From: Acidobacteriota bacterium | Lineage (GTDB): Bacteria; Acidobacteriota; Blastocatellia; RBC074 | Direction of reading: 5' to 3' | DNA length: 64,000 nt | Assembly: GCA_022072205.1 (NCBI GenBank) | Contig: JAJVID010000143.1 | Span: forward strand, 727-64,726 | Part shown: positions 7,151 to 63,062 of the stretch, piece by piece | Numbering within the stretch: the stretch's first letter is position 1 | Layout of the letters: every line of letters starts with the position of its first letter | Position numbers and translations under genes: made by a program | The notes under the pieces: generated by a model | Told to the model about the DNA's origin: nothing | The model's input: only the letters and a program-made list of their open reading frames with translations | The model's database searches: none

Positions 7151-7246
7151 AAAATCAAAAGGCAAAAATCAAAGGGCGAAAGTAAGAGGACGAATTTGCA
7201 GTCCAGAACTTTTGCCCTTTGATTTTTGCCTTTTGATTTTTGATTT
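7151..7246 (-). repeat. heptad-periodic palindrome immediately after the ftsZ stop (probable terminator)
   Basis: Arm 7151-7177 (aaaatcaaaaggcaaaaatcaaagggc) is the exact reverse complement of arm 7214-7240, with a 36-nt loop. Both arms have 7-nt periodicity (tttgccc tttgatt tttgcct tttgatt tttgatt). Confidence 0.85.
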
Positions 7247-8401
7247 CTAGTCGGCCTTCTTGCGCATAAAAGTTGGGATCTCAAGATCCGCATCCGTCTT
7301 GGCCGGGATTGAACCGGAGGACGGAGGGCTGATTCGCGGCTGCGCGTTATTCAGATTATTCCCGCCGCCGACCGTAGTCTGGCGCAATGGCATGCTGTGA
7401 ACATTCTCGTTCTTCTGGCTATCGAAGCCGGTAGCGATGACCGTGATCTTCATCTCATTTTGCATGCGGTCATCCGTCACCGTGCCCCAGATGATATTGG
7501 CTTCCGGGTCGGCGGAATCATGAATAGCTCTCATCGCCTCATCCATTTCGAAGAGCGTCAGATCATTGCCTCCGGTGATGTTGACCAGCACGCCTTTCGC
7601 GCCGGTGATCGAAGCCTCTTCGAGCAGCGGACTTGAAATCGCGCGCTGCGTGGCGTCCATCGCGCGGCTTTCGCCGACCGCGTGGCCTGTGCCCATCAGC
7701 GCGATGCCCATGCCTTTCATAATCGCGCGGACATCGGCGAAATCCACGTTGATGAACCCGGGGATGGTGATCAGATCGGAAATGCCTTGCACCGCCTGAC
7801 GCAGCACGTCATCAGCCATCTTGAACGCGTCGGCGAGCGACATGTTGCGGTCAGCCGCGTGCAGCAACCGCTCGTTCGGAATCGTGATCAACGTGTCAAC
7901 CACCGAGCGCAGTTCTTCCAATCCGGATTCAGCCTGGCGCAGACGGTGACGACCTTCAAACGGGAACGGTTTCGTGACGACAGCCACAGTCAACGCGTCC
8001 AACTCCGCCGCGAGCGAGGCGATGATCGGCGCGGCCCCGGTTCCAGTGCCGCCTCCCAACCCGACGGTAACGAAAACCATGTCGGCGCCTTCCAGAGCTT
8101 CCAGTATTTTTTCAGTGTCTTCGAGCGCGGCGTCGCGCCCGATCTCAGGGTTCGCGCCCGCGCCCAGACCTTTGGTGAGTCTTGCGCCAAGTTGCAACTT
8201 GACCGGCGCCATCGCCCTCTTCAGCGCCTGAAGGTCAGTATTCGCCACCAGGAATTCAACGCCTTCGATGCGGGCTTCGATCATGTGATTCACGGCATTG
8301 CTTCCGCCTCCACCGACACCAATGACCTTAATTCGCGCGCCGGCAGATGGCGGCTCATCACCGAAGGTGAAATTCAATCCTGTGCGATCATCTAACGACA
8401 T
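7247..8401 (-). CDS. ftsZ: cell division protein FtsZ
   Basis: Tubulin signature [10 protein letters not shown] and [13 protein letters not shown] 8399-8401 is preceded by GGAGG at 4 nt. The longer track ORF starts at GTG 8437. Confidence 0.95.
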
Positions 8402-8823
8402 CCTGCCTCCTACGGGTATTTCAGTAGCCTGCTCCACTTACGTCAAAGCCACACGACTTCGGCTTCAACATTCGATTCGTTTGTAAACGACCGGCCGAGG
8501 CGGCAGCAGGCTTCATATTCAGTTAAGGATTAGTAGGCGCCAGTTCGAACTACTTGCGCTCTGTTATTCAATTCACTGATCGTGACTTCAGCCGCAAACA
8601 AACCGTTTGCGGAATAAGCCGGGGCACAATGACGCCGATTCGATCTTAATCGAACGGCCCGCAGGCCGCGCGACGTTTCGATCGGTAACTTCGCGTTGTC
8701 GAATCGTTGTGATTTAGCATTCTGGTTCGGCGCATGATCTTGTAGCTTGATGCGGATTTTACCACAAGATATTGGAACGCCAATAGCAAAGACCATTTCT
8801 GCGACAAGTAATGAAAATATTCG

Positions 8824-8854
8824 CTGATCGAGAACGCGCTCGACGTTCGATCAG
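8824..8854 (-). terminator. stem-loop just downstream of ftsA
   Basis: ctgatcga (8824-8831) pairs with tcgatcag (8847-8854). It lies 8 nt after the ftsA stop and is followed in transcript sense by a U-containing tract. Confidence 0.35.
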
Positions 8855-8861
8855 ATATTCA

Positions 8862-10112
8862 TCACCGCTTGATCCCGAAAAATGATTTGACTCTGTCTCT
8901 CATGGGCTTGACCGCTGTGCGGCGCCATTGGCCGCGACCGCCAGCGCTCACTCCGAGTTCGCGGCGCGAGCCGTGAAGAATCAATCCGACAGCCGCGGCG
9001 AAATTTGGCGAAGCGATCTCGTCGCCCAATCCCTGGAAATCGCCCGGCACGCCCAATCGGACCGGAGCGTTGAAAACATGCTCGGCGACTTCGATCAGCC
9101 CTTCGAGCATCGCGCCTCCGCCGGTGAGCACCACGCCGCTCGACAATTGCCGATCGAATCCCGCCTGACGAATCTCGTCCTGCACGTGAGATAGAATTTC
9201 CTCGGCGCGAGGTTCGAGGATGTCGCACAGAATCTGGCGCGAGACAGCGCGCGGCGCTCGCCCGCCGACGCTCGGAACTTCGATCAACTCCGAAGCCTCT
9301 TCGGGGTTGAGCAGCGGACGGTAGGCGCAGCCGTATTCGCGTTTGATCCTTTCGGCTTCGGGAATCGGCGTCCGCAGACCCACCGCGATGTCGTTGGTGA
9401 AATGATTGCCGCCGAGCGGGAAAACCGCTGTGTGCCAGACCGAGCCGCGCTGATAAATCGCCAGGCTCGTCGTTTCGCCGCCGACGTTGACCAGCGCCAC
9501 GCCGTATTCGCGGTCGTCATCCGTCAGCACCGCTTCAGCCGCAGCGAGTTGCGTCAGATAGACTCCAGCCACGTGCAAGCCGGCGCGATTGACGCTGGAG
9601 ATTATGTTCTGCTTCGCAGCCACCGGACTGGTGATAATGTGAACCGACACCGACAGCCGCGAACCTAGCATCCCAAGCGGATCGTCAATGCCGTCCTGAT
9701 CGTCAACCGTGTATTCCTGCGGCAAAACGTCGGCGACTTCGCGGCCCGAAGGGATCGAGATCGCGCACGCGGTGTCAATCACGCGCATCACGTCTTCGTG
9801 AGCGATGGCGCGATGGCGGCCCGGAATGGCGATCATGCCATTGCTGTTCTGCCCCTTGATGCTCGATCCCGCGAGGCCGACGTAAACCTGATTGACCGTC
9901 AGACCCGACATCAGTTCGGCGTCCTCGACCGCGTGTTTGATCGCGTCAACCGTCAGATCGGGTTTGCTGATCACGCCCCGGCGAAGCCCTTTGGAATCGG
10001 CCTCTCCGATGCCGACGATTTCCAGTTGGCCGTCGAGCAGTTCCGCGATCACCACGCGCACGCTGCTCGTGCCGATGTCTAAACCTACGATGGGTGAATT
10101 CTGTCTTGGCAT
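8862..10112 (-). CDS. ftsA: cell division protein FtsA
   Basis: Actin-fold phosphate-1 motif [16 protein letters not shown] and position between ftsQ and ftsZ. Confidence 0.93.
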
Positions 10113-10127
10113 TGCTTTACCTCTGAT

Positions 10128-61612: not shown

Positions 61613-61654
61613 ATCTCGGATTTCAAATTTGGAATCCGGGATTCGAGATTTCCG
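61613..61654 (-). repeat. heptad-periodic spacer between the two tRNA-Ser genes
   Basis: atctcgg atttcaa atttgga atccggg attcgag atttccg. It contains the near-palindrome cggatttcaaatttggaatccg. Confidence 0.75.
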
Positions 61655-61655
61655 A

Positions 61656-61742
61656 CGGAGAGGGTGGGATTCGAACCCACGGTACCCGTAAGGGTACAAC
61701 GGTTTTCGAGACCGCCCGATTCAGCCACTCTCGCACCTCTCC
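61656..61742 (-). tRNA. tRNA-Ser (anticodon CGA)
   Basis: Manual fold: acceptor GGAGAGG/CCTCTCC, anticodon loop CTCGAAA, variable arm GTACCC-TTAC-GGGTAC, T-arm TGGG-TTCGAAT-CCCA. CCA is not encoded. Confidence 0.85.
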
Positions 61743-61767
61743 ACATAAAAACTCACTCAATCCTGTT

Positions 61768-62373
61768 TTATTCATCGTCATCGGAAGCTACTTCCAGCCG
61801 CCTGCCACCTTCATCATTATTAGCAAGATTAGCAGAATCATCATCCGGCTTGTTTTTGCGTCGTTGTTTGAAGAAAGCCTGCATCAACCGCCGGCCATCT
61901 TCAGCCCGCGTTCCCGAAGTAACTTCCACTTGATGATTCAAAGAACCGTTTGTGCAAATCTGGAAAACGGTATCAACTCCGCCCGCGCGCAAATCCGCCG
62001 CGCCGTATACCAGACGCTTGATTCTGGCGTTGACTATCGCTCCGGCGCACATCGCGCACGGTTCAATGGTGACGTACAACGTCGCTTCGGTTAAACGATA
62101 GTTGCCGATTCGTCGCGCAGCTTCTCGCAACGCTATGATTTCGGCATGCGCGGTCGGATCGCTTGATCCAATCGGGTGGTTGTGTCCGCTCCCCACGATC
62201 TGATTATCAATTACGACGATGGCTCCAATGGGAACCTCGCCTGCGTCTCGCGCCAGCCGGGCTTCGCCGAGCGCAAAGCCCATGAAGAAGCTGTCATTTT
62301 CATCGGCGTCACGAAGATGGCCAGCAGCGGCGGCGCTGTTTGTTTCTTCGTTTGCCTCATTGCGCTGTGCCAT
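61768..62373 (-). CDS. tadA: tRNA-specific adenosine deaminase with acidic C-terminal tail
   Basis: Zinc motifs [10 protein letters not shown] and PCAMCAGAI. Confidence 0.9.
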
Positions 62374-62471
62374 TGTTCATCAGGCGCGCCAAAACGCGAA
62401 GGCGAATGGTACTGACGCTGATTGTTCCTGTCAAGCAAGGCTTCAGTCAGGTTTTGATGTAGAATCCCCGC

Positions 62472-63062
62472 GTGTCTTCTTCGTACCAGAAATTCATAAA
62501 ACAGGTAGATGAACTCGCCGCGAAGCTACAGGCGCGTTACTCGAACCATCTGGTTTGCCGCGCGGGATGCAGCGGATGTTGCCACCATCATCTTTCCGTT
62601 TTCACCGTCGAAGCAGAAGCTGTTCGCGCGGCGATTGAAAATATGCCCGCTCAGGTTCGCGCTCGTGTGGAAGCGCAGGCTCGTGAAGTCATCGTACGCG
62701 AAGCTCAGGGCGAGACGGTAGCCTGTCCGCTGCTGCTTGACGACCGTTGTTCGATTTACGAATCGCGCCCGCTGATCTGTCGAACCCAGGGGCTGCCGTT
62801 GTTGATGGAGGCGGAGGACGGCGAACAGGAAATTGATTTCTGTCCGCTGAATTTCACCGAGGCCGGCGCGGTTGATGATCTGGATGAAAATCATCTTGCG
62901 CCGCTCGACCAGTTAAACTTGCGGCTGGCGCTGGTGAATTTGCAGCATTGCCGCGAAACGGGACTGGCGGATGGCGCGAGTGGCGAGCGCGTGAAGATGG
63001 CCGACATCGCGCTTGAATCTCAGACCTCAATCCCAAATCCCAAATCCCAAATTCAAGGCTGA
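62472..63062 (+). CDS. YkgJ family cysteine-cluster protein
   Basis: CRAGCSGCCHH and CPLLLDDRCSIYESRPLICR motifs. GTG start. Confidence 0.75.
   Translation: MSSSYQKFIKQVDELAAKLQARYSNHLVCRAGCSGCCHHHLSVFTVEAEAVRAAIENMPAQVRARVEAQAREVIVREAQGETVACPLLLDDRCSIYESRPLICRTQGLPLLMEAEDGEQEIDFCPLNFTEAGAVDDLDENHLAPLDQLNLRLALVNLQHCRETGLADGASGERVKMADIALESQTSIPNPKSQIQG
63029..63056 (+). repeat. AATCCCA heptad repeat at the 3' end of the YkgJ-like CDS
   Basis: aatccca aatccca aatccca aattcaa, bracketed by cttgaat (63012-63018) and attcaag (63051-63057). Confidence 0.8.

Follow-up and report, generated by a model that had tools for sequence, protein, structure and literature searches.

Inverted heptanucleotide repeat arrays at gene junctions of essential operons in Blastocatellia

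Arrays of tandem 7-nt units occupy gene junctions in a 64,000-nt stretch from the genome of a soil acidobacterium (contig JAJVID010000143.1, positions 727 to 64,726; hereafter the window, whose own numbering is used below). These arrays belong to the heptanucleotide class of simple sequence repeats (SSRs) called long SSRs (LSSR) or short tandemly repeated repetitive sequences (STRR), and they mostly form convergent inverted pairs, typically with tandem copies of a G-rich (or purine-rich) unit followed, after a short core, by tandem copies of the complementary unit. As the paired arrays are inverted and convergent, both DNA strands and the transcript fold into a hairpin of 22-40 bp. The explanation that we favour, and consider on balance probable, is that they are slippage-driven, hairpin-forming heptanucleotide repeats, in part similar to REPINs (hairpin-forming doublets of repetitive extragenic palindromic, REP, elements) or to MITEs (miniature inverted-repeat transposable elements), which are tolerated at short co-directional junctions. 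Homologues of MurG and RecR are named Blastocatellia, Blastocatellales or Chloracidobacterium, which places the genome in the class Blastocatellia of the Acidobacteriota and bears out an earlier note, made from this DNA alone, that had reported STRR-like heptamers in a non-cyanobacterial genome. The complete dcw (division and cell wall) cluster, from mraZ to ftsZ, lies on the minus strand at 7.2-25.2 kb as judged from Pfam families of syntenic orthologues, and a further element at 58.3 kb separates ybaB from recR in the dnaX-ybaB-recR operon, so that the placement of repeats at junctions within essential operons is confirmed as well.

Repeats were called with Tandem Repeats Finder (TRF), and a separate strict period scan was run against block shuffles. 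TRF made period-7 calls at 7151-7246, 12598-12658, 14984-15002, 22835-22862, 32308-32403, 58284-58368 and 63029-63052, and period-8 calls, which are coding, at 13733-13866, so that eight of the ten loci listed in the earlier note are confirmed; of the other two, 61301-61340 gave a weak call with a degenerate ATATNNN periodicity (68% matches), and 61613-61654 gave no TRF call and a fold that did not beat shuffles (z -1.1). All arrays of the window sit at junctions or gene ends, where a unit of 5-11 nt is repeated head-to-tail beyond the chance length for the genome, as in LSSR. The excess of period 7, for which a comparison with shuffles had been proposed, was evident when this comparison was run on the window: the strict scan found 8 period-7 arrays vs 0.05 per block shuffle, no period but 7 was enriched outside coding DNA, and autocorrelation over 7.4 kb of intergenic DNA was highest at period 7 among periods 2-15 (z 6.8). 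Inverted pairs were found at five loci, with arms of 25-40 nt that are 83-100% complementary and predicted hairpins of 22-40 bp, and RNA folding gave free energies (dG) between -41 and -76 kcal/mol and z-scores between -3.3 and -14.8 vs dinucleotide shuffles, in agreement with the five long palindromes first described. The reported sharing of units was also recovered: the element at 12.6 kb has TTGGTGG in common with the one at 32.3 kb, and the arrays at 14984 and 63029 both contain AATC(T/C)C. Taken together, enrichment, autocorrelation and folding show that the core observation stands. Heptamers also dominate in close relatives, where 93 arrays have period 7, 54 have period 8 and 37 have period 9. 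The neighbours of every array are co-directional, but most junctions here are co-directional anyway, so that this placement alone is not significant.

The analysis was extended to relatives through syntenic dcw loci retrieved by exact-protein look-up (L002, L003 and L004, with MurG identity of 89%, 81% and 71%, respectively) and through a metagenome scan that added about 20 further dcw loci at 83-90% and distant loci at <=62%. The close, middle and distant sets had 4.15, 2.47 and 0.68 period-7 arrays per 10 kb of dcw sequence, respectively, and the median junction gap dropped from 58 nt (close) to 10 nt (distant). The same junctions are occupied repeatedly across relatives, by unrelated sequence: between species sharing 83-95% protein identity, one junction may carry another unit family, another copy number, a REP-like palindrome, a vestige or nothing. 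Specifically, the murG-murC junction holds (GGTGGTT)n in the window, a REP-like palindrome (GTCCCGCCTTCAGGCGG...) in L002, (TTGTCAT)7 with its complement in L003, a direct (CTACTGA)5 array in L004 and, in other relatives, palindromes of GGGGAGT/GGGGAAT, GTGGGYA or GGGGCTG units, or a gap of 6 nt in L143. At murD-ftsW, the 2.7-copy GAGATTC-type array of the window has 15-17 copies in L142 and L143, and four other families stand in its place elsewhere. The ybaB-recR junction, which carries a 90-nt palindrome in the window, is reduced to a 2-nt gap in L186 (94% RecR identity) and to two lone units in L185 (95%), and it holds three other heptamer palindromes in L187-L189 (87-89%). Such differences at the same junctions imply that elements have been gained, remodelled and lost. 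Thus in the comparison of orthologous junctions suggested by the earlier note, palindromes recur at dcw and ybaB-recR junctions, but their units differ, or the palindrome is REP-like or absent. The elements are thus fixed and constant in length within the species, replaced from one species to the next, and dispensable.

Across the clade, 43 unique hairpin junctions were compared. The stem starts at a median of 2 nt past the stop codon (<=3 nt from it in 60% of them) and stops short of the following start by a median of 9 nt. The upstream gene ends in TAG at 14 of these 43 junctions and at 2 of 28 others (p 0.018), and arrays often take in the stop codon of the upstream gene or run into gene ends. 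The arms are often unequal (90 vs 38 nt; 77 vs 18 nt), which indicates that each arm changes length independently. One unit family tends to serve several junctions within a genome. Orthologues of the TTGGTGG loci were sought among the Blastocatellia pattern matches of the scan described below, and the six loci tested (L022, L025, L037, L040, L048 and L064) were rejected as they do not align with the window; the TTGGTGG unit therefore recurs at non-orthologous places. Separately, the murD-ftsW spacer of L002 (8631-8855; spacer dG -111) contains a palindromic insert of about 180 nt within a GATTTGA/GATTCGA array, with direct copies on both sides, as if another element had been inserted there. 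Other dcw junctions hold non-tandem, REP-like palindromes of two families (CTGGGAGCGCAGGCGCCCTCGCCTGC... and GTCCCGCCTTCAGGCGG...) in L002, L003 and L004 (for example L002 7181-7271 and 11141-11211), some of them at a junction that has a heptamer palindrome in the window.

Under the favoured explanation, replication slippage would lengthen and shorten the arrays, and complementarity of the arms would be maintained by templated copying between them together with a REPIN- or MITE-like spread of whole elements. Elements would build up in short co-directional junctions, since an insert that folds on itself leaves the stop codon and the next start side by side and may thus do little harm there. In the mRNA, thermodynamics predict a very stable hairpin reaching from the stop codon to a few nucleotides before the next start, which would be a likely substrate of RNase III and would leave a G-poor leader ahead of the downstream gene. 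Several points weigh against this explanation. No clean pair of empty and filled sites with a target duplication was found; no transposase or REP-associated tyrosine transposase (RAYT) gene is present among the window proteins; and the cores of the window elements are unique among the sequences compared, apart from a weak similarity of one of them (core A, in the 32.3-kb element). The evidence base comprises 64 kb of this genome and about 330 kb of sequence from relatives in the clade. Moreover, the recurrent occupation of junctions and a 28:1 preference for the G-rich arm in first position are not predicted by purely neutral slippage and would allow for selection or for a particular mechanism that generates them.

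A related possibility, which we regard as doubtful, is that these are non-autonomous mobile elements of MITE or REPIN type, with heptamer arrays as terminal inverted repeats, a transposase encoded elsewhere in the genome and insertion at TA or stop-codon sites. Inverted arms of the MITE type and the hairpin-doublet form of REPINs are indeed present, and a 31-nt core, GAAAATAAGGTTAATCAGCGAAGTTATTTGC, with AGTGGGY arrays is found in opposite orientations at murD-ftsW and murG-murC of one species (L137, L138, L141 and L144), as well as in L133 and, as a variant, in L128; for the host itself, the view of such dispersal extends over 64 kb. A core similar to core A is combined with other heptamer arms in L152 and L142, single unit families dominate several junctions per genome, unrelated REP-like palindromes occur at the same junctions, and TA...TA bounds the elements. 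However, TAG...CTA belongs to the palindrome itself, so that a target duplication cannot be distinguished from stem bases, and the boundaries of the near-empty sites in L143 and L186 are blurred by array growth. The absorption of a local stop codon as a repeat unit, and the range from 2.7 to 17 copies at one site, look like growth in place; single direct arrays with neither partner nor core also exist, and the lack of a transposase in the window counts against mobility as well.

Two metagenome contigs of the same species, L124 (99.76% identity over 14.7 kb) and L125 (99.55% over 12.3 kb), align with the window with zero gaps, repeats included, and the differences within repeat regions amount to three substitutions (7198, 13776 and 22846). 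The absence of indels in two further assemblies means that the repeats are neither artefacts nor phase-variable, and it answers the concern, raised at the outset, that they might have been created by assembly. A short-read contig from Logan (L001) terminates exactly at the murG-murC array, which could be taken as a sign of such an artefact but shows instead that arrays break assemblies and are not made by them. SSRs near start codons are classic phase-variation switches, and contingency loci would differ in copy number among close strains; here no copy-number difference was seen between the window and assemblies at 99.6-99.8% identity, and the neighbours are essential housekeeping genes. As for intrinsic terminators, the element 3' of ftsZ does form a hairpin followed by a U-rich run, which otherwise ends only the inverted repeat at 43538-43629, but the intra-operon hairpins have no U tract, and a terminator scan of the window flagged none of the arrays, at a hit frequency not above that of shuffles. 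The contingency, terminator and artefact readings are thus largely refuted, and next to no probability is assigned to them.

The earlier note had placed the purine/G-rich arm first in the direction of transcription. Any palindrome has that order on both strands, since the reverse complement of "G-arm, loop, C-arm" reads in the same order, and the polarity therefore cannot follow transcription. The asymmetry itself is real and intrinsic to the elements: among 31 unique heptamer pairs at Blastocatellia loci, 28 were G-first, one was C-first and two were neutral (p 1e-7). When 185,579 species-representative genomes were scanned for the pattern (TGGTTGG)3, it was found in more than 119 stretches from many phyla; the matches listed include Acidobacteriota, Planctomycetota, Gemmatimonadota, Bacteroidota, Cyanobacteria, Armatimonadota, Verrucomicrobiota, Bacillota and others, often with the inverted partner alongside. 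Among the listed matches from other phyla, pairs of the GGTGGTT family were G-first in a ratio of 19:0, and pairs of other units were G-first in 12 cases, C-first in 5 and neutral in 8, giving 31:5 for all units. In an extreme instance of this architecture outside the Acidobacteriota, from a metagenome-assembled genome of the Planctomycetota (FR_29; L050 286-989), 18 copies of GGTGGTT are followed 27 nt on by 78 copies of AGCCACC. We hold it rather improbable that paired heptamer arrays constitute a cross-phylum, self-templating class with a rule of G-rich 5' and C-rich 3' on both strands. With respect to genes, stop-proximal arrays were G-rich or C-rich in a ratio of 27:4 and start-proximal arrays in a ratio of 10:26, most of these counts being the palindromes themselves; at ftsW-murG of L003, a G-rich array past the stop is combined with an unrelated, non-complementary C-rich array before the start. 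This pair and the stop/start tally hint at a gene-related cause of the arm order. The G-first rule could arise from a specific generating mechanism, for example one that synthesises the G-rich strand on each of the two 3' ends at a break or a stalled fork, so that convergent arrays would result automatically. It could also reflect selection at the RNA level, whereby the C-rich arm is never unpaired, avoiding Rho loading, and the downstream leader is G-poor and independent of a Shine-Dalgarno (SD) sequence; if this were true, the elements would be operon punctuation in SD-poor lineages.

That the rule is identical on both strands is what a DNA-level property predicts, and arrays acting as G-quadruplex (G4), i-motif, cruciform or protein-binding sites might affect replication, transcription or nucleoid structure. 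The related G-rich heptamers GGGAATC and GGGGAYT form G4s in vitro (PMC4692102), and GGGGAAT and GGGGAGT units are common in the relatives. Nevertheless, the window contains one canonical G4 motif (58289-58313, in the ybaB-recR element on the plus strand, which is the template strand), nine of ten loci are unable to form a G4, and many units are A/T-rich (AAATCAA, ATCAAAT, TTGTCAT). A G4 explanation was rejected on the basis of this single motif, and DNA-level function as a whole is considered very improbable.

Selection for RNA hairpins that punctuate operons is possible, though unlikely. Such hairpins would be cut by RNase III, block exonucleases or hold stop and start together for re-initiation, and the outcome would be a G-rich, structured 3' end for the upstream gene and an unstructured, G-poor, SD-less leader for the downstream gene. 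In line with this, many relatives have palindromes at the same junctions even though the sequences have turned over completely, the palindromes span the interval from just past the stop to just before the start as measured above, and their stems of 22-40 bp exceed the length that RNase III needs. The G-rich to C-rich bias between stop-proximal and start-proximal arrays, with the non-complementary pair of L003, agrees with it too, as does the lack of an SD before murC in all relatives. However, SD-less starts are common in this genome. With a strong SD defined as anti-SD pairing at -6 kcal/mol or better and with approximate start assignments, 12 of 44 starts in the window were strong and 19 had no pairing, so that "clear GGAGG-type SDs" at most other genes, as the earlier note had it, were not found and the SD-less starts of murC, recR and the gene for a B12-binding domain are unremarkable. 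The C-rich arm does run up to the SD-less ATG at these three genes, but the contrast drawn with the rest of the genome falls away. Two tests of RNA function gave no signal. Among 45 unique junction hairpins, the sense strand did not fold better than the antisense strand (25 vs 18 elements, Wilcoxon p 0.14), and the antisense strand of the ybaB-recR element is 16 kcal/mol stabler (-58 vs -41.5). Nor do variant units in one arm mirror those in the other more than permutations would predict: in every heterogeneous pair, permuted units of the 3' arm fit the 5' arm equally well, in a test of low power. In addition, the arms are often very unequal, and elements are absent with no replacement from ybaB-recR in L186 and murG-murC in L143. 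An RNA function of the hairpins is plausible, with neither test in its support.

The repeat loci are listed in Table 1. For the 7151-7246 array TRF reported a composite unit, AAAATCA/AAAGGCA; it begins directly past the ftsZ stop TAG (7247-7249) with an A-rich arm followed by a T-rich arm ending in UUGAUUUU. The same family is present at this place in L002, L003 keeps the 3' arm alone, and L004 has the unit at murD-ftsW. Rfam searched with relaxed thresholds matched this hairpin to generic miRNA-precursor models only, far under the cut-offs, and at gathering thresholds the window yielded only the signal recognition particle (SRP) RNA and two tRNAs. The spacer between murG and murC is the palindrome exactly, identical in L001, L124 and L125, and it was resolved by TRF into (GTGGTTG)4.1 and (ACCAACC)3.3, both with 100% matches; the murG stop TAG (12658-12660) forms the stem base, the A of the SD-less murC ATG (12596-12594) is the last stem base. 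At 14984-15004 the murD stop TGA is part of one GATTTGA/GATTCGA unit, and 5 nt separate the array from the ftsW ATG. A peptidase M16 gene and the B12-binding-domain gene flank the 32.3-kb element, which has the palindromic core TAGAGACGTAAAATTTTACGTCTCTA (32335-32360) and carries a C-rich arm about three units longer than its partner, which reaches the ATG. In the ybaB-recR element, the (CCATTCC)5 arm stops 3 nt short of the recR ATG. The 9-nt unit of murE-murF forms a five-copy palindrome in L003, and the weak phasing at 61611-61653 is akin to the GATTTGA/GATTCGA unit. At the end of the window, the open reading frame (ORF) for a CxxCxxCC domain stops at 63060-63062, and the following ATG at 63063 adjoins the AATCCCA array.

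Table 1. Coordinates of repeat arrays and related spacers in the window (dG in kcal/mol; z vs dinucleotide shuffles)
Feature	Position	Strand	Remarks
ftsZ 3' palindrome	7151..7246	-	composite 14-nt unit AAATCAA + AAAGGCA; dG -51.8, z -7.9
murG-murC spacer hairpin, (GGTGGTT)n...(AACCACC)n	12597..12660	-	dG -51.8, z -9.3
Period-8 arrays, GCGGGAGA ... CTCTCGCG	13733..13866	-	inside coding sequence
murD-ftsW short direct array, GATTTGA GATTCGA GATTC	14984..15004	-	TRF 2.7 copies, weak
murE-murF spacer hairpin, ~9-nt units (ATGGGACTT)	18961..19034	-	dG -28, z -3.7; absent from the list in the earlier note
ftsL-ftsI spacer direct array, (ATCAAAT)4	22835..22862	-	single, unstructured; dG 0
(TGGTGGT)n...(ACCACCA)n palindrome	32308..32403	+	perfect 40-nt arms; dG -76, z -14.8
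ybaB-recR spacer	58284..58368	-	transcript (GAATGSG)4 then (CCATTCC)5; dG -41.5, z -7.5
Degenerate ATATNNN	61301..61342	-	12-bp A/T hairpin just 3' of SRP RNA gene (61377-61475); dG -13.1, z -3.8
Spacer between two tRNA-Ser genes	61611..61653	-	weak 7-nt phasing AT[TC][TC]NNN; no significant repeat or fold
(AATCCCA)3.4 direct array	63029..63056	+	TRF 63029-63052, 100%; 3' end of CxxCxxCC-domain ORF

The 8-nt-period case, previously described as a junction spacer, is coding: its 5' arm encodes the C-terminal tail of FtsW and its 3' arm part of an N-terminal extension of MurG, whose reading begins at an ATG sharing bases with the ftsW stop (ATGA). Of 18 unique relatives, 15 have a start codon that overlaps this stop and a spacing of 2 mod 3 between the stop and the conserved VIIAGGG motif, so that changes in length of the C-rich 8-mer array keep the frame. 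In this clade, MurG has a Ser/Pro/Arg/Leu-rich N-terminal extension of 25-50 residues (window 13830-13731), encoded by the C-rich 8-nt array, with a conserved LPLS before VIIAGGG.

Further features were noted in passing. An inverted repeat at 43538-43629, absent from the earlier note, has 31-nt arms that are 97% complementary (dG -58, z -9) and is not tandem; with A5 on one side and T5 on the other, it is located between two BNR-repeat genes, directly upstream of the AAGGAGA SD of the downstream gene. Between the ftsZ 3' palindrome and an hfq-like gene (6359-6787), the 6788-7150 interval (minus strand) contains a conserved block of about 130 nt, GGTAGCATTGCCCCATCAACGAGCAACAGTATTGAGTTG...GATTCCCGCAAAGTTCCACCGTTGATC, preceded by a promoter-like TTGACA...TAGCAT; the block is nearly invariant in L002 and L003, recognisable in L004 (71% MurG identity) and matched by no Rfam family, and it may be a conserved leader or a small RNA of the hfq-like gene. 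At 28902-28976, in an ORF (28111-29178) with no Pfam match, a 12-nt sequence (AGAAGGACGCGA) is perfectly repeated in 6.2 copies. Another ORF with no Pfam match, at 4424-5167, is Lys/Ala-rich and histone-H1-like, with nested coding repeats of 12, 24, 57 and 69 nt, and a similar gene occurs at the same place in L002 and L003. Adjoining DUF5615 and DUF433 genes at 49608-50411 (minus strand) have an arrangement typical of toxin-antitoxin modules.

Bacterial heptanucleotide repeats came to light in 1990, and their role is still described as unresolved in recent papers. The present clade offers a dense natural experiment, with unrelated hairpins at the same essential-operon junctions in dozens of relatives and occasional empty sites, so that tolerance can be tested directly against function, as can the G-first rule. 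In practical terms, the arrays break short-read assemblies (L001 at murG-murC) and mislead gene callers, which extend ORFs through arrays or place starts and stops inside repeats (ftsW/murG, the CxxCxxCC gene).

Comparison with known systems shows that palindromic heptamer arrays are a known class of bacterial repeat. REP, REPIN and MITE elements (such as Correia elements) are short, non-coding, hairpin-forming intergenic repeats that are co-transcribed in operons. The elements described here resemble them in being present or absent between relatives and in the shared core found in both orientations in one relative, but differ in that their arms are tandem arrays of variable copy number and not of a fixed 20-35 nt, with no linked transposase or target duplication shown (background on REP elements in PMC8266576). 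As regards cyanobacterial STRR, three tandem heptanucleotides in Calothrix PCC 7601 are cited in PMC4692102; the arrays are likewise tandem, dispersed and mostly intergenic, with several families per genome, but the host is not a cyanobacterium and palindromic pairing is dominant. Nothing on repeats of such a kind in Acidobacteria or Blastocatellia was found among the papers searched. The STRR units are reportedly CCCCAGT (STRR1), TTGGTCA (STRR2) and CAACAGT (STRR3), as said to have been described by Mazel and co-workers in 1990, and a tandem dimer of any of these was found neither in the window nor in the sequence compared from close (228 kb) or distant (380 kb) relatives. The LSSR survey of Mrazek et al. 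(2007), as summarised in PMC4679880, covers units of 5-11 nt with a scattered phylogenetic distribution, reports heptanucleotides as the commonest long SSR in most genomes and proposes slippage; so far as that summary goes, LSSR is a statistical category, with no hairpin pairs, cores or junction occupancy. In marine Beggiatoaceae, TAACTGA direct repeats stand just upstream of housekeeping starts in place of a recognisable ribosome-binding site, and also in ribosomal and essential operons (MacGregor 2015; PMC4679880). The arrays just ahead of the SD-less starts of murC, recR and the B12-domain gene are similar in position; the Beggiatoaceae repeats, however, comprise a single unit in one orientation with one indirect repeat in 170 sets, in contrast to the many units and mostly inverted pairs here, and the TAACTGA unit is absent.

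The closest likeness is to the heptamers of Xanthomonas and Nostoc (Rehm et al. 2015; PMC4692102). Each Xanthomonas genome contains 70-75 convergent inverted pairs of GGGAATC arrays, favouring gaps between co-oriented ORFs, with the G-rich strand after stop codons and the C-rich strand before starts, preserved in position between species and variable in length and sequence, and neither these nor the Nostoc heptamers have a link to surface or virulence genes or a known function (PMC4692102). The earlier note knew of no description of palindromic versions inside essential operons; inverted heptamer pairs between co-oriented genes had thus already been reported, and novelty of the palindromic form cannot be claimed. 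The present repeats share with those of Rehm et al. the dispersed tandem heptamers, the excess in non-coding DNA, the co-oriented ORFs and the convergent inverted pairs with conserved position and variable length, and the G-first pairs match the "convergent orientation" of the Xanthomonas pairs (PMC4692102). They differ in the acidobacterial host, the many coexisting unit families, several of them A/T-rich with no G4, and the stop codons or coding ends taken into the arms. GGGAATC and GGGGA(C/T)T units are absent here, the related GGGGAAT and GGGGAGT occurring in relatives, so that none of the published units (STRR1-3, TAACTGA, GGGAATC, GGGGAYT) is represented. To the known class the present analysis adds the coexistence of many unit families, the stop codon within the stem, arrays translated as protein tails, a junction-by-junction series of turnover and a cross-phylum rule of arm order.

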